A stretch of DNA of 64,000 bases, taken from an uncultured Clostridia bacterium. Its GTDB lineage: Bacteria > CAYTYR01 > UBA6262. How positions within the stretch are numbered: position 1 is the first letter of the stretch; the number at the start of each line of letters is the position of its first letter. The position numbers and the translations under genes are program-made. The stretch is from the NCBI GenBank assembly GCA_964441745.1, contig CAYTYR010000003.1:35348-99347 (forward strand), in the 5' to 3' direction. The notes beneath the pieces were generated by a model. That model did not search any database. It was not told the DNA's origin and saw nothing but the letters and a program-made list of their open reading frames with translations. Shown piece by piece: positions 1-53,544 of the stretch.

Positions 1-1269
1 TTTGGTATCAGTATCTTTATGATTGCGCAAGCTGATCTGCCAGGCAACTTCATAAACATTGTTAGATACCACTTTAAAATCTGTCTGTTTCCGTTCTCCG
101 ATCACGTCAAACGCTTCGCCCATTTTGATCTTGATGATCTCGTCTTTTGGCGTATGGTCAATGTTATCTTCGCCGATGAATTGCAGGTTGCCCCGGGGAT
201 CTGATTTATATACCCGGATAATGCCTTTGGGCAAAGGCATACCCAAGCGATTTTCTTTTTTGTTGTCAATATTGATATAGACGCCGACTTTTTGGTTGGA
301 AATTGGCTGGCCGTAGGAATTCCGGTAATAATACTCCGCCCCCCAGAAGATCAATTCTTTGCGGATCGGCACATTCGCTGCTTCCAGCAGGCTGATCTGC
401 TTAGTCTGGTTCTGTTTAATAGTGCTTTTCCGGTCCAGGGTATACAAATGGTACTCAAAAAAACTTTCTTCCTGGAAAGCGCTTTCCCTGGCCACTGCCC
501 CGGCCATACTCATGGCTTTATCATAACGCCTTTCCGGCTGCGCTACCCTGTTCACATCGCCGGCTACTAATTGGATACCCGCATCTTTATAGGTAGCCCC
601 GCTTTTGTTGTCAATAGTCACCCAGCCGCTCACATCCGCGGCATTATCATCCTTATTAAGTACAGTTACGTAATCAGCTTTCCAGTTTATGCCTCCGGTC
701 AGGTAAGTGACTTCCAGCTTCTGCGCCTTAAGCAGTTCATTTTCCAGCAGCCAGACCAGGGTCGGCTTGGCCATCAGGTTTTCCGGTATTTCCGGGTAGA
801 TTATCTGACCCGGAGAATAGGCGTAGATCTCATCACCGACTTGGAAAATTGGTCCATTATTTACGCTTAATAGTTTGGCATTATATACTTCCTCTTTTCC
901 GGTATACTGGTTCTTTTCCCTGATCCTGACCGTCTTGCCGACAAATTTTTCCATCAACTTTTCCGGACTGAGCAGGTCGTACTCATAATTTTGTTCCAAT
1001 ATATTCAGGCTCAAAGGATCAGTCAGAGACTTGATGTGTACCGTGGTAGGATTGATCTGGCTGGCCACATCCATGAACTTAAGTTCAGTGAGCCCTTTAG
1101 GCAGGCTGATGTTACGGGTATCTTTCACTAATCCCAGATTGGAATTATAAATAGTGATCGCCAGGCCTTCCTGATCACTGAGGGTGCTTTTAATTCCTTC
1201 CTCCTTGGCCCATAAAAAGCTTGGCGCCATCATTACCAGCAAAACAACAAGCCATACTTGCTTACGCAT
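1..1269 (-). CDS. secreted protein, 3' end cut by window edge (possibly DUF4139-like)
   Basis: rc ATG at 1267-1269 preceded by GGAGGAAG-like SD at 1271-1279; N-terminus MRKQVWLVVLLVMMAPSFLWA looks like a signal peptide; absent from ORF track, consistent with no in-frame stop before position 1; family assignment is from memory only. Confidence 0.5.
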   Translation of the reverse strand, partial: MRKQVWLVVLLVMMAPSFLWAKEEGIKSTLSDQEGLAITIYNSNLGLVKDTRNISLPKGLTELKFMDVASQINPTTVHIKSLTDPLSLNILEQNYEYDLLSPEKLMEKFVGKTVRIREKNQYTGKEEVYNAKLLSVNNGPIFQVGDEIYAYSPGQIIYPEIPENLMAKPTLVWLLENELLKAQKLEVTYLTGGINWKADYVTVLNKDDNAADVSGWVTIDNKSGATYKDAGIQLVAGDVNRVAQPERRYDKAMSMAGAVARESAFQEESFFEYHLYTLDRKSTIKQNQTKQISLLEAANVPIRKELIFWGAEYYYRNSYGQPISNQKVGVYINIDNKKENRLGMPLPKGIIRVYKSDPRGNLQFIGEDNIDHTPKDEIIKIKMGEAFDVIGERKQTDFKVVSNNVYEVAWQISLRNHKDTDTK

Positions 1270-3160: not shown

Positions 3161-3203
3161 TGGAGTTTTGGAAAAAGCATTTTATTAAGATTTTCACCTT
3201 AAC

Positions 3204-3233
3204 TTAAAACTCAACACTCAAAATTCAAAACTG
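3204..3233. repeat. REP-like intergenic palindromic element, copy 1 (AAAACTCAACAYTCAAAATTCAAAACTG)
   Basis: near-identical to 52666-52695; inverse-related to 55453-55475 and 52563-52578. Confidence 0.5.
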
Positions 3234-3241
3234 CATCTATG

Positions 3242-6192: not shown

Positions 6193-6612
6193 TTATGCCG
6201 GGGTACTCTTATCCGGATTACTTTTGCCGTCATTCATATGTACGCGTCCATACAAAAAAGTGCTGATCGCTGTTGTTTTAAGCGGTTCCAGATTTAAAAA
6301 CTGCACCCCAGTGTTGAAAAAACCTTCTTTTTCACTGGGGACAACCCAGACCACCCGGACTTCAGAAGTGATCCTGGTCCGGTGCAGGCCGGGCAGGCTG
6401 AAAATAAAAATTGCTTTGCTGGCCATTTTCACCCGTTTGGGCAGCAGCACCATCATGCCCCGCTCTGAAAGATTAACTGCCTTGGTCAGTGTGCTATAGG
6501 CGCTGCCATCTTCCAGTGAAGCATTGATCACCTGGACTCCTTCTTCAAATTTTATACGCGTGCTTTGCCGGCGTTCCGGTTGTTTGAAATCGATCATGCT
6601 CTTCCCCTCCAT
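6193..6612 (-). CDS. PilZ domain protein
   Basis: 139 aa; RRQSTR followed by NLSERG (RxxxR and D/NxSxxG pattern). Confidence 0.55.
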   Translation of the reverse strand: MEGKSMIDFKQPERRQSTRIKFEEGVQVINASLEDGSAYSTLTKAVNLSERGMMVLLPKRVKMASKAIFIFSLPGLHRTRITSEVRVVWVVPSEKEGFFNTGVQFLNLEPLKTTAISTFLYGRVHMNDGKSNPDKSTPA

Positions 6613-6728
6613 ATTTTTACAAATACAGTTTGCTAGTTACCAGTTGCCAGCCAATACGAAAAACAGTTATGAGGTGTAAGTTTTGGAAGTAAGTTTGGTC
6701 TGAGGTCTATGGGTGTTAGGCTTTAAAC

Positions 6729-6792
6729 CACTAACTTTAGACTTACTTCCATACCTGCTTCTACAACTTTCACCCGATTACTATCGCTCGCT
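6729..6792. repeat. interspersed intergenic repeat of about 64 bp, copy A
   Basis: CCACTAACTTTAGACTTACTTCCATACCTGCTTCTACAACTTTCAC... closely matches 13324-13387 (by eye about 50 of 64 identical); also pairs with GGAAGTAAGT at 6686-6695 to form a hairpin. Confidence 0.55.
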
Positions 6793-6824
6793 AATTTTGC
6801 TGCTTTCCGGTTTTACTGGCTAAC

Positions 6825-8690
6825 TTATTTCACTGGTATACTAAAAGTAAATTTGGTACCTTTTCCCGTATCGCTATCAATAGCGATCGTACCGCCATGC
6901 ATTTCCACTAATTCTTTACAAATGAATAATCCTAAACCGCTGCCACCCCGGCCGGCGCTGAATTGCTGGAACCGGCCAAAGACTTTGCCTAAATTCTCCT
7001 TGGCTATACCTACACCGGTATCCTGGATAGTCACATAAATCTTGTTCTCCTCCGGCTGACTGTAGGTAGCCAAGGTAATCTGCCCTTCATCCGGGGTAAA
7101 TTTAATAGCATTACTGATGAGATTCATAATGATCTGGATGAATTTGTCATGGTCTACTTGCGTCTGGGGAATATTCCCAGGGATGGCTTTTAATTCCAGC
7201 TTTTTATTTTTAGCCCAGAGCTGGCTGGAATCAACAACTTTGAGCATTAATTCGTTAAGATCAGCCGGGGCTAACTTCAATTCCATCTTCCCGGATTCGA
7301 TCTTAGAAATGTCCAGCAAATCATTGATCAGTCTTTCCAGCCGGCTAATGCCTTCGCAAGCGTCTTTGAGAAAATCATCCTGATCGTGATTGAGCTCTCC
7401 GGCAATCTTATCCTTGACCATCAACACAGCTCCTTTGATCAAGGTTAAAGGAGAACGTAATTCATGCGAAACATGAGCTACGAATTTATCTTTCAACTGG
7501 TCTATTTCTTTTTGCTTGGTCACATCACTCAATACCGACACCGTACCAACGGTCATACCGCTGGTGTCTTCAATGATAGCGCTGGAGGCGCGCAGGATTT
7601 TCCTGGTATTTTCCTGCCCGTGCACCACTATTTCCTCTACTTTGTCTCCCTGGTCACCGGTACTGATCTCTTTACTGAACGAGGCTATTTGGTGTTCACT
7701 AATATTCTCGGAGATATGCTTACCGGCCACCTTGTCTTTGGGCTTACCCAGCAATTTCTCAGCAGCTTCATTAATAAAGAGCACCTTCCCCTCTTTGTCC
7801 ACTACGACTAGTCCATCGGATATACTACGCAGGATTCGCTCGGTTTTTTCCTTTTCCCGGACCAGTTTCTTTTTATCTTGGACTAACTCATTAACCGCTT
7901 CATGTACTTTTTGCTGCATCGTCTCGTCAAATTGCTTGGCTTTGGCTACCAGTTCTTTATATTCATCATAAGCGATCCTTTTCATCCGCCCGGCTTTTTT
8001 GACCACTGGTTCCATAGCACCGCCAAGTCCAGGTCCTAATCCCGGACCGAGACCAGGACCTAATCCAGGGCTTAACCCAGATCCAAAACCTGTTCCTGTC
8101 CCTATACCAGTTCCACTTTCCGAACCTGTACCGCTCCATGCGTCTATTCCAGCGCCGATGATAGCAGGCCTGTTCCGCCTCTTTGGTTTATCGCCAGCCG
8201 GGGTAGTAGTGACCCTCTCACCTTTTTTCACTTGGACAAAAGTACTTTGATTAACAATAATATGGGAGATATTCTTGTTTTTAAGTAATTGGTTTAGGCC
8301 GCCGTCCTTTACTGTTTTTTGCGGATCGCTCATGAACACTACAAATTCCTGCAATTCTGATTCAGGAACATTAGCCTCAATGGTCAAGCTTTCTACCATC
8401 AGGTGCTTCAAGGTCCCTTCCAGCAAGGCTGCGACTGGACCAGACTGTTCGGTCAGGTTGATATTTTCAATGATAATTTTCCCTTCGACGAAACCAATAG
8501 TAATTTCTTTGCGGCTGGTAAACAATTCTTGCAGTATGCCTTGCAGTTGCTTGAAGGAATCTTTGACAAAAGGATGATCAATAAAATACAGGCTGGTTTT
8601 GCGGATAGTAGAACCTAAAACCTTAGCGAGAGAGAGAAACCTGGCCAGGTCTTGCTCGCTGACTTGCGGCGTTTTATTTTCTTCAGCCAT
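6825..8690 (-). CDS. cytoplasmic sensor histidine kinase with PAS domain and Gly/Pro-rich linker
   Basis: 621 aa; H-box AHVSHELRSPLTLI, HATPase_c G-boxes (DTGVGI, GSGLGLFICK); PGLG repeats in linker; no clear TM segment. Confidence 0.85.
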   Translation of the reverse strand: MAEENKTPQVSEQDLARFLSLAKVLGSTIRKTSLYFIDHPFVKDSFKQLQGILQELFTSRKEITIGFVEGKIIIENINLTEQSGPVAALLEGTLKHLMVESLTIEANVPESELQEFVVFMSDPQKTVKDGGLNQLLKNKNISHIIVNQSTFVQVKKGERVTTTPAGDKPKRRNRPAIIGAGIDAWSGTGSESGTGIGTGTGFGSGLSPGLGPGLGPGLGPGLGGAMEPVVKKAGRMKRIAYDEYKELVAKAKQFDETMQQKVHEAVNELVQDKKKLVREKEKTERILRSISDGLVVVDKEGKVLFINEAAEKLLGKPKDKVAGKHISENISEHQIASFSKEISTGDQGDKVEEIVVHGQENTRKILRASSAIIEDTSGMTVGTVSVLSDVTKQKEIDQLKDKFVAHVSHELRSPLTLIKGAVLMVKDKIAGELNHDQDDFLKDACEGISRLERLINDLLDISKIESGKMELKLAPADLNELMLKVVDSSQLWAKNKKLELKAIPGNIPQTQVDHDKFIQIIMNLISNAIKFTPDEGQITLATYSQPEENKIYVTIQDTGVGIAKENLGKVFGRFQQFSAGRGGSGLGLFICKELVEMHGGTIAIDSDTGKGTKFTFSIPVK

Positions 8691-8723: not shown

Positions 8724-8760
8724 GTAATCGGTGTAATCTCTTTTAGAAATCTGGGTAATT
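8724..8760. promoter_or_regulatory. GTAATC direct-repeat element (same family as the Pho-region boxes) upstream of histidine kinase 6825-8690
   Basis: GCGTAATCGGTGTAATCTCTTTTAGAAATCTGGGTAATT closely matches 43830-43866 and 53515-53545. Confidence 0.35.
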
Positions 8761-8770
8761 ATCTTATATC

Positions 8771-12634: not shown

Positions 12635-13249
12635 TCACTGGGTGATTTGGTTTTCCGTTCTGATCTCTTTTCTTAGTTGTTTATTTTCCCGATGTTGCTC
12701 TTCCAGGTGTTCTTGTTTTTCCGTTCTTTGCTGCTGATTATAGGTTTTGATCGCTGCTACTTTCTGTTCCTGCGTCATATTCGGATCATTGGCGATCTTT
12801 TCAAAGAAAGCAACCTTGTCAGCATGTCTCTGTTCCCGGAAACTGACATTTTCCTGGTGCTGCTGCTCAAAGTTATTGATCAGTTCTGTCTTCTGGGCAT
12901 CAGTCAGTTTGTGATTATTTGCTAAGCGCTGTTGCAGGAATGCCATATTTTCTTCATGTTGTTTCTGGTTAAAAGCTTTATTTTCCTGTTTCTGCGTTTG
13001 CTTTTGCTCTTTGATCGCAGCTTTCTTCTGTTCCTTTGTTGCGCTGCCTAAACTCTCCCTTAATTCTTTATTTTCCTGGCGCTGTTCTTGCATATGCTCT
13101 TGTCTTTCAGTTCTCTGTTGCTGCCTGAATTGCCTGGTTTCCTGTCCCGTAGCTGAACCCTTGTTCAGCGCTTGCCCCTTATTTGCAGCCCCTAATATCA
13201 CCGGCAATAAAAATAACCCTGCCACCGTTAACAACATTACTTTTTTCAT
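12635..13249 (-). CDS. periplasmic Gln/Glu/Lys-rich protein with LTXXQ motifs (CpxP/Spy-like)
   Basis: 204 aa; signal peptide MKKVMLLTVAGLFLLPVILGAA; LTDAQK and MTQEQK motifs; internally repetitive. Confidence 0.4.
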   Translation of the reverse strand: MKKVMLLTVAGLFLLPVILGAANKGQALNKGSATGQETRQFRQQQRTERQEHMQEQRQENKELRESLGSATKEQKKAAIKEQKQTQKQENKAFNQKQHEENMAFLQQRLANNHKLTDAQKTELINNFEQQHQENVSFREQRHADKVAFFEKIANDPNMTQEQKVAAIKTYNQQQRTEKQEHLEEQHRENKQLRKEIRTENQITQ

Positions 13250-13323: not shown

Positions 13324-13387
13324 ACCACAAACTTTAGACCTACTTCCATACCTACCTCTACAACCTTCACCTATTACTATTGCTTCT
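13324..13387. repeat. interspersed intergenic repeat of about 64 bp, copy B
   Basis: CCACAAACTTTAGACCTACTTCCATACCTACCTCTACAACCTTCAC... matches 6729-6792; both copies sit just 3' of the stop of a minus-strand gene. Confidence 0.55.
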
Positions 13388-13390
13388 AGC

Positions 13391-14638
13391 TTATTTAGGA
13401 GCTTTCCAGTTCCTGATTATTTCTGCCAGCGTCTGATAGCTTGGTTTTTCAGAAAAATCAGCACGGATCAGGCCAAAATAATCTACGCCACTGCCAAAAT
13501 GATCCTGCGTATCGCGGAAAAACGCCCAGAATACTTTATCGATCTGCTCATCTTCAATAAAATCCGTGTAAATCTGTTTGACCCAGATCGCCTGTTGCTG
13601 TTCGTCAGGATTTTTGCCATTCCACCATTGTTTTACCGTCGAATTTTTAGGAACTCCCGGGCATCCCATTTCCGTCACCCAAATCCTTTTTTTACCATCT
13701 TTACTCCTGACCATGATCTTTTTAACCTGGGTAATGACGCTTTGCGCCGACTTCACGGGAGCAGGCCGCAGAGGAGAGATCAGGACATGGACATTGACGA
13801 TATCAAAATAATCCCGGCCGCCGTTCTTATAGATCCATTCTATTTTATAAGCCTCAGCCAACCCACCCATGAGGATCTTGCAGCTGGGGTCTTCTCTCTT
13901 GGCTGCCTGGTAGACGTCTTTCAGCAGAGAGGTATAGCGCACCAGCATATCTTGCGGCCGCCAGTAGGTCCGGGAATCAGGCTCATTCCAGACTTCCCAG
14001 TACTTTACCTTATTTTTATAACGCTTGATCACCGCGGTGGCGAAATTAACAAAGAATTTATTTTCGCGCGGTGCCGAACACCAGAGGTAATCCGGTCCTT
14101 CTGCCGCCCATCCTGAACAATAGGAAAAAATGCCTAAAACGCGGATATTATTTTCACTCAGCAGGTTAACAATGCGGTCATAGCGGCTGAAATCCCATTT
14201 ACCCTCTAATTCTTCGATATCGCTCCAGCCAAAATCCATCCGCACATAAGTGATCCCGGCTTTTTTCAGAGCCGCTGCCGCTTGATCCAGGTTTTCTCCT
14301 TTAAAGGAAAAATTGTTCCATTTATGGTCCCAGTTCAGGAAAGCCAGCGCAGCAAAAGGGTTATAACCGGTTTCCCGCCAATCATACGGTGAGGGATCGT
14401 ATTGGTTGAGGATACCGTCTTGATCATAATCAGTACTGACTGGGTCAAAGGTGATCTTGTTATCTTGCGCTGATTGTAAGATTGCTTTTAATTCATTTTC
14501 AGCGGGGATAGAAGCATCATTCCGGGCATGCCAGACTGCTGAATTTTTAGAAAAATCAGGTAATGGATACTCAACCTCGTTGAATTTGAATCCGCACAGG
14601 ACGATTAAGCTTAACAAGCAGAGCACCGATCTTGGCAT
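13391..14638 (-). CDS. secreted glycoside hydrolase, clan GH-A TIM barrel (GH5/GH39-like)
   Basis: 415 aa; signal peptide; WEVWNEPD (acid/base Glu) and VTEMG (nucleophile Glu) motifs. Confidence 0.6.
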   Translation of the reverse strand: MPRSVLCLLSLIVLCGFKFNEVEYPLPDFSKNSAVWHARNDASIPAENELKAILQSAQDNKITFDPVSTDYDQDGILNQYDPSPYDWRETGYNPFAALAFLNWDHKWNNFSFKGENLDQAAAALKKAGITYVRMDFGWSDIEELEGKWDFSRYDRIVNLLSENNIRVLGIFSYCSGWAAEGPDYLWCSAPRENKFFVNFATAVIKRYKNKVKYWEVWNEPDSRTYWRPQDMLVRYTSLLKDVYQAAKREDPSCKILMGGLAEAYKIEWIYKNGGRDYFDIVNVHVLISPLRPAPVKSAQSVITQVKKIMVRSKDGKKRIWVTEMGCPGVPKNSTVKQWWNGKNPDEQQQAIWVKQIYTDFIEDEQIDKVFWAFFRDTQDHFGSGVDYFGLIRADFSEKPSYQTLAEIIRNWKAPK

Positions 14639-14810: not shown

Positions 14811-15158
14811 TTACCATCTCTTCCCGCCGCCACCGCCGCCGTAGCCGCCTCTGCCGCCGCCACCGCCGTAGCCGCCTCTGCCGCCACCACCATGTCTTCC
14901 ACCGCCGCCGCCTTCAGTCTTGGGGCGAGCTTCGTTGACATTCAGGTTCCGGCCTTTCAAGTCCTTGCCGTTCAAACCGGCAATAGCTGCCGTGCCTTCT
15001 TCTTTAGTCGGCATTTCTACAAAACCAAATCCTCTTGATTCACCGCTGAATTTATCCTTGATTATGGCGGCAGTAGCTACCTGCCCATAAGCAGCAAAGG
15101 CTTGTTTGAGATCCTCTTCAGTTACATCTCTTGACAGGTTCCCTACGTAAATGTTCAT
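14811..15158 (-). CDS. RRM-type RNA-binding protein with Gly-rich tail
   Basis: 115 aa; RNP2 IYVGNL and RNP1 RGFGFVEM; C-terminal GGGGRGGYGGG tail encoded by a 30-bp tandem duplication. Confidence 0.85.
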   Translation of the reverse strand: MNIYVGNLSRDVTEEDLKQAFAAYGQVATAAIIKDKFSGESRGFGFVEMPTKEEGTAAIAGLNGKDLKGRNLNVNEARPKTEGGGGGRHGGGGRGGYGGGGGRGGYGGGGGGKRW

Positions 15159-17884: not shown

Positions 17885-20535
17885 CTACAATAAATCTTCC
17901 ACTTTAGTCACCACTTTATACTCAACATCCTTAAATTCCTTAAAATGGGCTTCCCCGCACTTGATCTTCATTCTCTCTTCCGGATATAATTCATTCATTT
18001 CCCGGGTTGATTTCGTCTCCGCCACGAAATACAGCTTCTTCTCCCCTTTAAAGATCAAGGCCCAATCGGGGTTATAACTGCCCAAGGGCGTCTTTATCTT
18101 GAACCAGGCAGGGAGTTTTATGTAGAACTCAACATTATCGTTAGTCTCGCAATCACTGGCGAACCGTTTTTCCGGTTCGCTCATTGAATCTATAGAAATA
18201 TAATTAGCTATAGTTTTATCCTGCTTTGATACTTGATAGAGATTCTTTCTATATGCCTCCACCTCATTGTCTTCGAATAATCTCATCTCATATTCAATAC
18301 CATTGATCTTTTCATATTTTATCCCATCCACAATCATTTCGGCTAAGACATTCTTTATCTCCGCTGTCGCCATATCCATGAACATTTGAGGATTTCTCAA
18401 GATATCAACCAGCCGGCCAGAGCCTTTCAATATCCGCAAGATCGTTGATCGGGTTAATTCGGTTCTCGATTGTATATATCCCAGCACATCCGGGACATCA
18501 AACAAAGGATTTTCAACCTGAGTTATTCCCACACCCTTCTGCACTCCGGTTAATCCTTCTCTGACGACCTGCATTCCCGTTTTAACATACTTAATGATCG
18601 GCTTGCGCACCGCAGGCATATTCTTTATCTCTTTGACCGACGCTTCTATAAGCTTTTCAGTATCGAAATCAATATTATAAGTTGTTTTATGTTTTATTTT
18701 GTCCCATAGCTCCTTAAACTTCTCATCAAACTGGTAATTTTTTCTTAACCGCACTTTCACCCTTTCGTTCTTATTTCTTATCCTCTCCTTGAATTCGACT
18801 CCGCAATCCTCTTCCATTTCTTTCTGTAACTCTGCAGCGAATTCCTCGTAACTTTCATTGGCAATAACCGTCAACCTGTTAGTGTTCTTATCCTGGATCC
18901 TGTCGCCTTGCTGATCCACGCAAAGCCGCAATCCCCTGCCAATTTCCTGCCTCTTTTTCATCTCGGATCTCGTCTCGTTCAGAGTGCATATCTGGAAGAC
19001 ATTGGGGCTATCCCAGCCTTCTCTTAAAGCAGAATGACTGAATATAAATCTTAGAGGATTATTAATATCGAGAAGTCGTTCTTTATCCTTCATTATCAAC
19101 CTGTATGTATCATCATCTGCCAGGGTTTCCCTGGATTCAGAAGAATCTTTAAAGATCCCTTTTTTGTCCTGCGCGAAATAGCCGTTATGAACGACTTCAG
19201 ATTGAAAAGGGATAACTCCCTGATATTCTTTTTTCCCCGCTATTTCCTTGAATATTTCTTCAAACCAGAGGGCAAATTTTCCTTTCGCAGGGTTCCCCGC
19301 CTCATCATAACTGCGGTAGTTGGCTACCCTGTCTATAAAGATAAGCGAAAGGACTTTTATTCCTTTTTCTTTATATTTTTTCTCTTTCTGGAAGTGTTCT
19401 TCCACAGTCTTCCTGATCTGGACCTTCATAACTTCATCCAGCAGGCCGCCCCTCTGCTCTCCAACCGCCAGTATCTCTCCATTGGAGAGCTCAACCTTGC
19501 CTTCCCCCACGTCTATGGCATTAATAATATATCCTTCCCGGTAAAGCTCTCTTTTATTTGATTTTTCATACAAGTCATCTCCAACCTCAACATTCACTGT
19601 TTTCCTGATTATTCCATTCTCGCCAAGGGTATCCAAGCTTATTTTTGCCAGAGTCTTTGTTTTCTTGGCCTTAATATCTTCAACCTTCAGAAAAGCCTGA
19701 TTACTGCTATTCTCGGCAAAAATTGAATCAACTTCTATCTGTTTGACTAATCCCAGATCATAAGCTTTGACAGGATTAAGGCTGTAAACAAGGTTATACA
19801 GATTTGCGTGAGTAGCAGAATAGCGGAGAGTGCAGGCAGGATTCAGATTATCTATGGCCTTTTTCCTTATTTCCGTTTCCATGTTCTGAGGTTCATCAAC
19901 AATGACTATGGGATTCGTCGCCTGTATGAATTCTATCGGTTTCTTCCCGGTTAGTTTATCATTAAACTTATTAATAACATTCACGTCCTTGGCAAATGAA
20001 TCAATATTGATGACCAATATCTGAATGTTATTGTTTAGAGCGAAATTCCTTAAAAGGGATATTTTCCCCGGATCATACACGTTGAATGTCGCCGGTTGTT
20101 TCTCATACAAAGACTGGAAATGGTCATGGGTTATCTCAAGGTTCTTAATAACTCCTTCTCTTATGGCGATGCTGGGGACTACGATTATAAACTTTTTGAA
20201 TCCATAGCGTTTATTAAGCTCATATATGGTCCGCAAATATACATAAGTCTTTCCTGTACCTGTCTCCATTTCCACTGAGAAATTAAGACCTTGCAGGTAT
20301 TCCGCTTCTTTGAGCCCATTTTTCCGCTGAATTGCCTGAAGATTTGCTAATATTTGCGCTTCTTCCAAAACTATCCCATTTCCAACACCGTTTTCAGACA
20401 GCATATAGCCGCTATTGGGAGACAAAGAAAATTCATAATCGCTCTTATTTAAAGGCTGCCCCTCGAACAGGTCAACTATGGAGTTAATAGCGTCTATCTG
20501 ATACTGCTGGTTTGGATCAAAATGGAGTTTCATTA
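17885..20535 (-). CDS. res: Type III restriction enzyme, Res subunit (helicase-nuclease)
   Basis: Walker A METGTGKTYVY, motif II VIVDEPQNM, C-terminal nuclease region; real start is ATG at 20533-20535 (MKLHFDPNQQYQ) with AAGGA SD, not the upstream in-frame start at 20668. Confidence 0.9.
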
Positions 20536-21404: not shown

Positions 21405-21550
21405 AGGCAATAATGCTAATAATTTTGGATCGGGGTGTCCCCGGTCGGTATTAATGAGCGGTAAGTCCGTTGTGAATTGTTCCAAGTGTTCCCTTCCATA
21501 GGTTGGCTATAGCTTGGACGCAACAAGTTCACAGGGCGCGCTCATTTTTT
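21405..21550 (+). ncRNA. candidate structured small RNA of about 145 nt, antisense to the Type III RM operon
   Basis: downstream of the promoter; local hairpin GATCGGGG-TGT-CCCCGGTC (21427-21446); long-range pairing AATGAGCG (21452-21459) with CGCTCATT (21538-21545) followed by T-run 21545-21550; only coding potential is a 15-aa ORF without SD. Confidence 0.35.
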
Positions 21551-43829: not shown

Positions 43830-43866
43830 TTTTGTAATCGTTTTTAGAAATCTGTGTAATCATTTT
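43830..43866. promoter_or_regulatory. GTAATC direct-repeat element upstream of porin gene (candidate Pho box)
   Basis: TTTTGTAATCGTTTTTAGAAATCTGTGTAATCATTTT; two TGTAATC units 22 bp apart; reverse complement of the pstS-upstream motif. Confidence 0.4.
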
Positions 43867-43882
43867 AATAAAGGAGGAAGAC

Positions 43883-44954: not shown

Positions 44955-44989
44955 GATTACACAGATTAGAAAGAAAGATTACACAGATT
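44955..44989 (+). promoter_or_regulatory. tandem GATTACACAGATT boxes upstream of pstS (candidate Pho box/operator)
   Basis: two identical 13-mers at 44955-44967 and 44977-44989, 22 bp centre to centre, ending 16 nt before the pstS ATG. Confidence 0.45.
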
Positions 44990-45004
44990 AAAAAGGAGAC
45001 GACG

Positions 45005-45820
45005 ATGAAAAAAGTAGTAAAAGCAATATGTATGCTAAGCATCTTAAGTTTGATCGCCGGCAATGTACTGGCGGGGCAGAAATTGACCATGAGCGGCTCC
45101 ACTACGGTTCTGCCGATCGCCCAGAAAGCGGCAGAAGAATTTATGAATGCCCATCCTGACGTGGATATCAGTGTCAGGGGCGGCGGTTCCGGCGTTGGCG
45201 TCGCGGCAATTATTGACGGCACTGTAGATATTGGCAATTCTTCCCGCGCCGCTAAAGCCAAGGAGATCGCCACCGCCAGGGGCAAAGGGGTTAATCTATC
45301 CGGTACGATAATCGCCAAAGACGGTATCTGTATCATAGTTAATAAAGCTAACAGTATCAGCAGTATCTCCCTGGAGACGGCAAAAAAGATCTATACCGGC
45401 GAGATCAGTAAATGGAGCGAAGCCGGGGGCAGCGGCAGTACGATCGTAGTTATTTCACGGGATACGGCCAGCGGCACTTTTGAGGTTTTTAATGAAAAAG
45501 TGCTCAAAGGCAGCAAAGTAAGGGAAGACGCCATGATGCTGGCTTCCAACCAGGCCATCTTAACCTCTGTGTCCACTACCCCAGGAGCTGTCGGGTACAT
45601 TGGATTAGGTTATGTCACGGATGAAGTCAAATCCCTGGTGGTCAATGGGGTCACGGCAACGAAGGAAACCGTGATCAGCGGCAAATATCCGGTAAGCCGT
45701 CCATTATATATGTATACTAATGCCGCGCCTAAGGGCCTGGCTAAGCAATTCCTGGATTATATACTCAGCCCTACGGGACAGAAACTAGTAGAAGAAGTAG
45801 GATTTATCGCAGTAAAGTAA
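45005..45820 (+). CDS. pstS: phosphate ABC transporter substrate-binding protein PstS
   Basis: 271 aa; signal peptide; GSTTV and SRDTASGT phosphate-binding motifs; AAGGAG SD. Confidence 0.9.
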   Translation: MKKVVKAICMLSILSLIAGNVLAGQKLTMSGSTTVLPIAQKAAEEFMNAHPDVDISVRGGGSGVGVAAIIDGTVDIGNSSRAAKAKEIATARGKGVNLSGTIIAKDGICIIVNKANSISSISLETAKKIYTGEISKWSEAGGSGSTIVVISRDTASGTFEVFNEKVLKGSKVREDAMMLASNQAILTSVSTTPGAVGYIGLGYVTDEVKSLVVNGVTATKETVISGKYPVSRPLYMYTNAAPKGLAKQFLDYILSPTGQKLVEEVGFIAVK

Positions 45821-52562: not shown

Positions 52563-52695
52563 AAAACAATTTTGAGTTATAAGTTTTAAGTTTTGAGTTT
52601 AGGTGAATTTCTTTACCATAATTAATAATTCTCCGCCTTTAAGCTTGGCGGATCCGCCTCTGGCGGAAAAACTCAACATTCAAAATTCAAAACTG
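52563..52695. repeat. REP/MITE-like palindromic element between pstB3 and phoU
   Basis: left arm AAAACAATTTTGAGTT..., two internal CCGCC/GGCGG hairpins (52631-52667), right arm AAAACTCAACATTCAAAATTCAAAACTG; arms are inverse-related and match 3204-3233 and 55453-55475. Confidence 0.5.
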
Positions 52696-52717
52696 TATTA
52701 AATTTTAGGAGGAAACA

Positions 52718-53389: not shown

Positions 53390-53447
53390 CACTTATTATT
53401 TATTAACCTATTTACAGCAAGCCTGAATTCTGCTACACTACTAAAGT

Positions 53448-53544
53448 GATTACACCGATTTCTAAAAAAGATTACCCCGATTAAAAAAACAAGTTCTAAT
53501 CATCTTGCTCTATCAGTGTAATCTCATTTCTAATCTGTGTAATC
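53448..53544. promoter_or_regulatory. cluster of four GATTAC/GTAATC boxes in palindromic arrangement
   Basis: GATTACACCGATT (53448-53460), GATTACCCCGATT (53470-53482), then TGTAATC at 53517-53523 and 53538-53544; upstream of gene 53566. Confidence 0.4.

Follow-up and report, generated by a model that had tools for sequence, protein, structure and literature searches.

Two closely similar intergenic stretches lie within the window (the whole 64,000-nt stretch of DNA analysed here). Positions 6727-6774 and 13324-13371 agree at 43 of 48 positions (90%) in a gapless alignment, and the similarity runs on to about 6790 and 13387, respectively, across a 2-nt indel. Each stretch follows the stop codon of a minus-strand gene, which encodes a PAS/HisKA/HATPase_c histidine kinase in the case of copy A and a weakly glycoside-hydrolase-like protein in the case of copy B (Table 1). 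The original prediction held that such conservation is too high for chance, and this is borne out: a degenerate 47-mer drawn from both copies has exactly these two matches in the window, and 100 dinucleotide-preserving shuffles contain none. Its placement of the repeat simply 3' of a gene captures the upstream stop codons, but both copies also lie directly upstream of another minus-strand gene, encoding a PilZ-domain protein at A and a 204-aa protein at B, and are therefore intercistronic. The unit size of 64 bp has to be revised, as these 64 bp comprise the left arm and a bit of the outer layer of an imperfect palindrome of about 104-120 nt, here termed family 1 (consensus GGTGAAGGTTGTAGAAGTAGGTATGGAAGTAGGTCTAAAGTTTGTGGTTTAGAGCCTAACACCCATAGACCTCAGACCAAACTTACTTCCAAAACTTACACC). 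Neither this palindromic nature nor the relation to a gene-bearing hairpin cassette, described below, had been noticed.

Table 1. Family-1 and family-2 repeats and the genes adjoining the two window copies (positions refer to the window unless another locus is named)
Feature	Position	Strand	Evidence or remark
Copy A, full-length family-1 core, imperfect palindrome of ~104 nt	6672-6775	-	nhmmer profile match 6663-6782, 124 bits
Copy A left arm (5', GT-rich in sense)	6727-6775	-	Part covered by the original prediction, whose 6729-6792 also takes in 6776-6792 of the outer layer
Copy A right arm (3', AC-rich in sense), partial inverted copy of left arm	6672-6715	-	Hairpin fold; reverse-strand nhmmer match over the same interval
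Outer layer, 5' side, degenerate family-2 units (CAGTAAAA.CG..AAGCAG type)	6776-6824	-	Comparison with L029, L030, L036 and L013
Outer layer, 3' side (CATAACTGTTTTTCGTATTGGCTGGCAACTGGTAAC...), family 2	6620-6671	-	In L030 and L036, the orthologous site has a family-2 palindrome whose 3' part is homologous
Copy B, half copy: family-1 left arm and short outer-layer piece (AGCAATAGTAATA)	13324-13387	-	nhmmer match 13324-13376, profile positions 8-60 only
Gene upstream of copy A, PAS/HisKA/HATPase_c histidine kinase	6825-8690	-	
Gene downstream of copy A, PilZ-domain protein	6193-6612	-	
Gene upstream of copy B, 415-aa glycoside-hydrolase-like protein	13391-14638	-	Weak matches
Gene downstream of copy B, 204-aa protein, signal-peptide-like N-terminus	12635-13249	-	No family match
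Family 2, L029	3854-3990		
Family 2, L030	3798-3990		
Family 2, L036	~990-1130		
Family 2, L010	2599-2740, 7874-7905		
Family 2, L013	2468-2499, 3156-3207		
Family 2, L005	5929-5964		
Family 2, L012	1630-1688		

Copy A reads GGGTGAAAGTTGTAGAAGCAGGTATGGAAGTAAGTCTAAAG ... loop ... CAGACCAAACTTACTTCCAAAACTTACACCT on the minus strand and aligns with 12 other full-length copies. In the predicted fold of its 212-nt spacer, the two sides of the outer layer also pair with each other, and the minus strand forms a single long hairpin (-57.7 kcal/mol versus -42.9 for shuffled sequences; z = -3.7). Copy A is a complete hairpin that sits inside an older repeat belonging to a second family. Copy B lacks the right arm and any stable fold (z = +1.7 versus shuffled) and is a decayed, probably inert half. 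Structure prediction, proposed earlier as a check, yields a strong hairpin for copy A and none for copy B. The genes flanking copy A show two further details. At 6825-6840 of the window, the kinase ends four codons before the end of its orthologs (PVK* versus PVKPVSQ*) via a CCA-to-TAA change, and the old gene end (GTTAGCCAGTAA) is still recognisable 3' of the new stop codon, within 6776-6824. The true start of the PilZ gene is probably the ATG at 6600, giving 135 aa, because all orthologous sequences are 135 aa long.

A scan of the GTDB species-representative genomes for 19 specified bases of the repeat returned 13 loci. Twelve of these are true and occur in three related MAGs (STB_132, STB_115, and Elusimicrobia bacterium UBA6262); the thirteenth, in a Lachnospiraceae MAG, was rejected as a chance 20-mer. 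A family-1 profile, built from nine full copies and searched over the fetched loci (designated by L numbers) and the window, added copies at L007 1548-1664, L009 5570-5689, and L010 6601-6718 as well as several partial ones, and found no family-1 site in the window beyond A and B. The metagenome scan contributed one new copy (L018), the remaining hits being mostly chance 20-mers and near-duplicates of STB_132 loci. Searches of viral contigs, INPHARED phages, and PLSDB plasmids gave no family-1 match, and a phage or plasmid origin was rejected. As copies are found only in the window, the three related MAGs, and one metagenome contig, family 1 is confined to a narrow lineage. The collections searched do not include the window's own genome: no record carries its PilZ protein as an exact sequence, and three probe stretches from the window match none of the fetched loci. 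A search for further copies was proposed with the original prediction, and such copies are dispersed in related genomes, though only two sites lie within the window. When orthologous and duplicate loci are merged, the window, the three Elusimicrobia-like MAGs, and the metagenome contig provide 17 independent sites. Copies tend to cluster: both window copies fall within 6.6 kb, L010 has three in a 2.5-kb interval, and dxs in L007 is flanked by a pair. We considered that site B of the window might be the ortholog of the L005/L012 site and rejected this; the neighbouring genes both encode 415 aa, but the proteins are unrelated.

All family-1 copies are intergenic. A typical copy lies between co-directional genes, from a few to about 45 nt past a stop codon and about 11-25 nt ahead of the next start codon; at several sites the stop codon of the upstream gene falls inside the element. 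With the orientation of the element defined by the arm bearing AGGTATGGAAGTA, it runs in the direction of the upstream gene at 15 of the 17 independent sites (binomial p = 0.002). The neighbours are functionally unrelated to one another and include kinase/PilZ, glycosidase/lipoprotein, dxs, EF-P, and Wza/Wzz genes. Orthologous copies from two species (L004 1560-1760 and L009 5540-5740, the latter designated L009b) occupy a 5' UTR; a near-consensus TTGACA-17-TATAT promoter directly precedes them, and the product of the gene downstream starts MPELRKD. The earlier suggestion of a 3' UTR element accordingly holds insofar as copies follow stop codons, but most occupy operon spacers and one lies in a 5' UTR.

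Base pairing is conserved across the family. Among 40 pairs in 13 full-length copies, 82% of cells are paired, versus 31-53% when the partners are slid by 1-3 columns, and 16 pairs are altered on both sides, a count reached by none of 500 shuffles. In L008, for example, GAAG/CTTC is replaced by GAGG/CCTC. The sense and antisense strands fold equally well across the family (mean difference 0.3 kcal/mol), so the structure may matter at the DNA level only. A strand-specific RNA structure was rejected on the equal folding of both strands, which also made a G:U asymmetry test uninformative.

We also compared the two window copies with signals expected of an RNA gene. Consensus scans associated no promoter or terminator with either copy; the sole terminator-like match near copy B is on the opposite strand, inside the upstream gene, and no U-tract directly follows the hairpin. 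Rfam 15 gave no gathering-score match at either copy when searched with the window and, also at permissive E-values, with both spacers. The best sub-threshold match was to a miRNA-precursor model and reflects hairpin shape only, and membership in a known RNA family was rejected. The idea of a small-RNA gene family is therefore unsupported on three counts, namely the absence of an associated promoter or terminator at the window copies, the absence of an Rfam family, and a fold of copy B that is no better than shuffled. Family 1 is probably neither a dedicated regulator nor an sRNA gene.

To follow the repeat between relatives, syntenic loci for site A were collected via PilZ orthologs having 92% to 64% identity to that of the window. 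The window itself carries family 2 and a complete family-1 core. The closest loci (L027/L028, PilZ 92%) retain a 55-nt, family-2-like remnant, while L036 (89%) carries family 2 and a family-1 core missing its central ~60 nt. The site is empty, with a spacer of 17-20 nt, in L037 (84%), the P0008 contig (83%), and L031 (64%). L030 (79%) contains a different palindrome, composed of 16-nt family-2 units (CAGTAAAAGCGAAGAG) without a family-1 core, and L029 (77%) likewise contains family 2 only. As these states do not follow the order of PilZ identity, their explanation requires several gains and losses. The spacer at site B measures 19 nt in the closest relative (L027) and 141 nt in the window, where it starts with the half copy; the flanking genes of L027 are about 83% identical to the window at the nucleotide level. 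Elsewhere, L012 is an internally deleted version of its ortholog L005, and family 1 as a whole occurs as full, half, and internally deleted copies. Because the orthologous sites of relatives are empty, decayed, or otherwise filled, the comparison of these sequences indicates that family-1 repeats are gained and lost. The earlier notion of a small mobile repeat is strengthened by the 17 independent sites and by close relatives whose orthologous sites are empty, internally deleted, or hold another repeat.

No clear target-site duplication is seen at the family-1 copies, and the filled and empty versions of site B (~83% nucleotide identity) are too diverged to define junctions. The flanks are often TAATA-like; this motif, a near-palindrome, may be part of the outer stem. 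L029 and L036 are both found in GCA_028716025.1, which accordingly contains two diverged kinase-PilZ loci (PilZ 77% and 89%) differing in repeat content. This suggests that GCA_028716025.1 is a mixed bin or includes two co-assembled strains.

Family 2 is also a dispersed repeat, in which the 16-nt units form tandem and inverted arrays and thereby long palindromes of their own (Table 1). The family-1 core occupies the centre of family-2 arrays at site A (in the window and L036) and at the unrelated locus L013, while in L002 a family-2 extension is present only on the right side of the family-1 core. Since family 2 is itself dispersed and flanks the family-1 core at unrelated loci, these structures represent nested repeat mosaics.

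One family-1 locus contains a gene. In L010 (STB_132), left-arm and right-arm halves of family 1 lie 440 nt apart between Wza-like and Wzz-like genes, and the left arm is followed by an ORF of 133 aa and then by the right arm. The encoded protein belongs to PF05635, '23S rRNA-intervening sequence protein' (E = 9e-17), also matches TIGR02436, 'four helix bundle protein', and shows a weak match to the Xanthomonas S23p structure 2gsc. Together with a leader of about 25 nt, the ORF occupies the exact position of the loop in ORF-less copies. The arms form an inverted repeat of 47 nt with 81% identity, and the RNA of the whole cassette (561 nt) is predicted to fold (z = -6.9) with about 40 pairs in its terminal stem, including an uninterrupted run of 25. 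A second genome (L032/L033) contains the same cassette at the orthologous site, with family-1 arms of similar length (~46-47 nt across both cassettes) and a protein 90% identical. The cassette with family-1 arms is thus represented by one independent locus in two genomes.

Inverted repeats likewise enclose each of the other PF05635/TIGR02436 genes that we examined (n = 5), the 5' arm being GT-rich and the 3' arm AC-rich. These genes include a second member of the family in L010 (arms of 38 nt, 79%), L035 (21 nt, 90%), L034 (weaker arms, 14 nt), and L038 (38 nt, 82%, with a further 16/16 segment directly next to the start and stop codons). The proteins of L038 and L034 are 81% identical, the closest pair in the set, and their arms are recognisably homologous, while their genomic contexts are unrelated. 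As arms and proteins are both alike in unrelated contexts, arms and ORF appear to travel as one unit. The cassettes examined have no reverse transcriptase or template/variable repeats beside them.

The right arm of the second L010 cassette (905-952) lies inside the N-terminal coding region of the downstream ORF, and a 19-mer from this arm recurs at 6281-6299, near the start of the Wza-like gene. Either the arms of this cassette can be absorbed into signal-peptide coding sequence or its inverted repeat is partly coincidental. Among the fetched loci, there are no convincing ORF-less copies of these arms, the 19-mer being a single match inside a coding region.

The closest parallels to the cassette are the intervening sequences of 23S rRNA genes in Salmonella, Leptospira, Coxiella, and Xanthomonas. 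In Coxiella, a 28-bp terminal stem encloses the S23p ORF and the intervening sequence is excised by RNase III; the origin and mobility of intervening sequences and the role of their ORF have been described as unclear, and a mobile-element hypothesis has been proposed for the origin (PMC4990558). Family 1 and its cassette share with these elements long terminal inverted repeats that pair into a stem of tens of base pairs, a loop that is either short (in the ORF-less forms of ~100 nt) or contains a four-helix-bundle ORF of ~120-135 aa from the same protein family, sense insertion in a transcribed region, patchy distribution, and proneness to decay. Unlike intervening sequences, family-1 copies lie between protein-coding genes or in a 5' UTR rather than in a 23S rRNA helix; the window contains no rRNA, and all family-1 copies found are outside 23S rRNA genes. 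Family 1 also differs in being multi-copy, with half and deleted derivatives, and in having no sequence similarity to the described intervening sequences (Rfam gave no such match). RNase III excision is known for intervening sequences, whereas for family 1 it is the stem geometry that is compatible with such processing.

PF05635 proteins are related to Avd of diversity-generating retroelements (PMC10053308). The cassette protein falls into the same four-helix-bundle superfamily and has a weak NF033474 match, far below the Avd family cut-off, but the cassettes differ from these retroelements in lacking an adjoining reverse transcriptase or template/variable repeats.

The ORF-less copies, in turn, resemble MITEs such as Correia/NEMIS of Neisseria and RUP of Streptococcus, which are small, non-coding, bounded by inverted repeats, and dispersed between genes. 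Likenesses extend to frequent co-transcription with neighbouring genes, presence or absence between relatives, and an apparent gene-bearing parent with the same ends. Transcripts of Correia elements are cut by RNase III. In contrast to MITEs, the sole gene-bearing relative of family 1 encodes a PF05635/TIGR02436 four-helix-bundle protein and no recognised transposase, family-1 copies have no demonstrable target-site duplication, and the hairpin spans the full element, in place of short terminal repeats that enclose unique DNA.

The REP/REPIN/BIME elements of proteobacteria are similar in being extragenic palindromes that occur as inverted doublets (as in copy A) and singlets (as in copy B), are concentrated after stop codons inside operons, and form mosaics with other short repeats (here family 2). 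However, the arms of family 1 are about twice as long (~45-50 nt) and unrelated in sequence, the host phylum is another one, and no RAYT is encoded among the few ORFs scanned around family-1 copies. The link to a four-helix-bundle gene has no REP counterpart.

These observations indicate that the two window stretches are copies of a lineage-specific, dispersed, hairpin-forming DNA repeat that behaves like a non-autonomous mobile element; we infer its movement from presence and absence between relatives. The probable identity of family 1 is a non-autonomous, MITE-like derivative of an intervening-sequence-type hairpin cassette. It would have arisen from an ORF-bearing cassette through loss of the ORF and then multiplied by itself, as a MITE does in relation to its parent. 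The direction of this derivation, rather than the gain of an ORF by a pre-existing hairpin, is what we infer from analogy and from the co-variation of arms and protein in a different type of cassette. As almost every copy shares the direction of the surrounding operon, the copies are presumably transcribed as part of its mRNA, in which they would fold into a long double-stranded stem. By analogy with the 23S rRNA intervening sequences, this stem would be cut by RNase III, which is the most likely fate of family-1 transcripts. Such a cut would separate two cistrons while abolishing neither, so insertions in spacers may be tolerated. The orientation bias could be inherited from ORF-bearing parents that depend on the sense strand, or it could reflect strand-specific insertion or selection.

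The same bias could instead point to an RNA function at the level of the host. Family 1 would then be a host-recruited cis-acting RNA element, the hairpin being kept in operon spacers for the benefit of the flanking genes. It might serve as an intercistronic processing or stability determinant, modulate translation from a position ~20 nt ahead of the following ribosome-binding site, or act as an element of the 5' UTR. REP hairpins, for instance, protect upstream mRNA. The strength of the sense-strand preference (15 of 17 sites), the compensatory changes that conserve pairing, the regular placement just ahead of the next start codon, and the persistence of some copies at orthologous sites across species (L004/L009b, L005/L012, and window A/L036) would all be expected of such an element. 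We nevertheless consider it unlikely, given that folding is as good on the antisense strand, that halved or internally deleted copies are frequent, and that copy B is unstructured. Moreover, the closest relative lacks family 1 at both window sites, and spacers of 17-20 nt evidently suffice. A dedicated cis-regulatory role is disfavoured in particular by the unrelated functions of the flanking genes, together with a closest relative that has no repeat at B and only a family-2-like remnant at A.

Also quite unlikely in our estimation is that family 1 is a REPIN or an ordinary MITE moved by a RAYT (Y1 transposase) or an IS transposase encoded elsewhere, with the four-helix-bundle gene a passenger in the loop. 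Doublet hairpins alongside singlets, a position between genes, local clusters of copies, and mosaics in which a second family is nested with the first agree with this proposal, and the orientation bias would be expected if insertion is strand-specific relative to replication. IS200/IS605-type enzymes insert strand-specifically with respect to replication. However, no transposase or other known mobility gene is present beside any copy among the few flanking ORFs scanned, and arms of ~45-50 nt are longer than classical REPs. The other examined genes of the protein family have bracketing repeats of their own, and arms track protein similarity across unrelated contexts; as each examined four-helix-bundle gene carries its own co-varying arms, the passenger idea is hard to sustain.

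A family of tiny protein-coding genes is highly improbable: a minus-strand frame of 16-20 codons (VKVVEAGMEVSLKLVV in copy A, VKVVEVGMEVGLKFVVFFMM in copy B) is open in both window copies, contrary to the original statement that there is no ORF, and two of the five substitutions in the shared part are synonymous, but a suitably spaced Shine-Dalgarno sequence is missing, the GTG start falls in the outer stem, whose sequence is different in other subfamilies (L005, L006, L007), the end of the frame differs from copy to copy, and conservation tracks base-paired columns rather than codon positions. Because of the missing ribosome-binding site and the unconserved start, we do not consider the frame to be coding.

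Returning to family 1 as a derivative of a hairpin cassette, a broader and more tentative possibility is that hairpin-enclosed, Avd-like four-helix-bundle genes constitute a widespread class of mobile cassettes. Members of this class would insert in the sense orientation into operon spacers and rRNA helices, carry their arms between genomes, and spawn ORF-less, MITE-like families. The protein could be a mobility or maintenance factor, and RNase III cleavage could make the insertion harmless. If this hypothesis is correct, it would provide a natural history for the rRNA intervening sequences and the S23p ORF. We found no description, in open-access text, of cassettes of this kind in operon spacers, nor of repeat families without an ORF that derive from such cassettes.

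A new palindromic family in an uncultured lineage is modest by itself, and its value is increased by the link to a gene-bearing hairpin cassette. This lineage combines the ORF-bearing cassette with an amplified form that lacks the ORF, with half and deleted derivatives, and with orthologous sites in both the filled and the empty state. It therefore constitutes a concrete system in which to study how cassettes move, if their protein is required, and if processing by RNase III neutralises insertion into operons. Family-1 copies also mark places where operon mRNAs are likely structured or processed.

Several other repeats and features were identified in the window. A full-length match to the Rfam DUF3800-V RNA is located at 21451-21548 on the plus strand (71.5 bits; gathering score 37.4). 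Near it are repeated gene 5' ends at 20493, 21296, 23140, and 34562 as well as paralogous repeats of 140-166 nt at 20118/34183 and 24690/37154, which suggest duplicated gene modules. Intergenic motifs of the TGTAATC...GATTACA type occur in direct and inverted orientation at 8725-8766, 43833-43870, 44955-45008, and 53439-53544, and may represent a shared operator or a further family of small repeats. Copies of an A/C-rich repeat of 31 nt (AAAACTCAACACTCAAAATTCAAAACTG), 94% identical, lie about 49 kb apart and are accompanied by an inverted partial copy (3201-3236, 52568-52592, and 52668-52698). Finally, a GCC-rich tandem repeat with a 9-nt period is located at 14826-14879, inside the minus-strand ORF 14811-15158; at the position corresponding to this ORF, the syntenic locus L027 contains a 117-aa RRM_1 gene.
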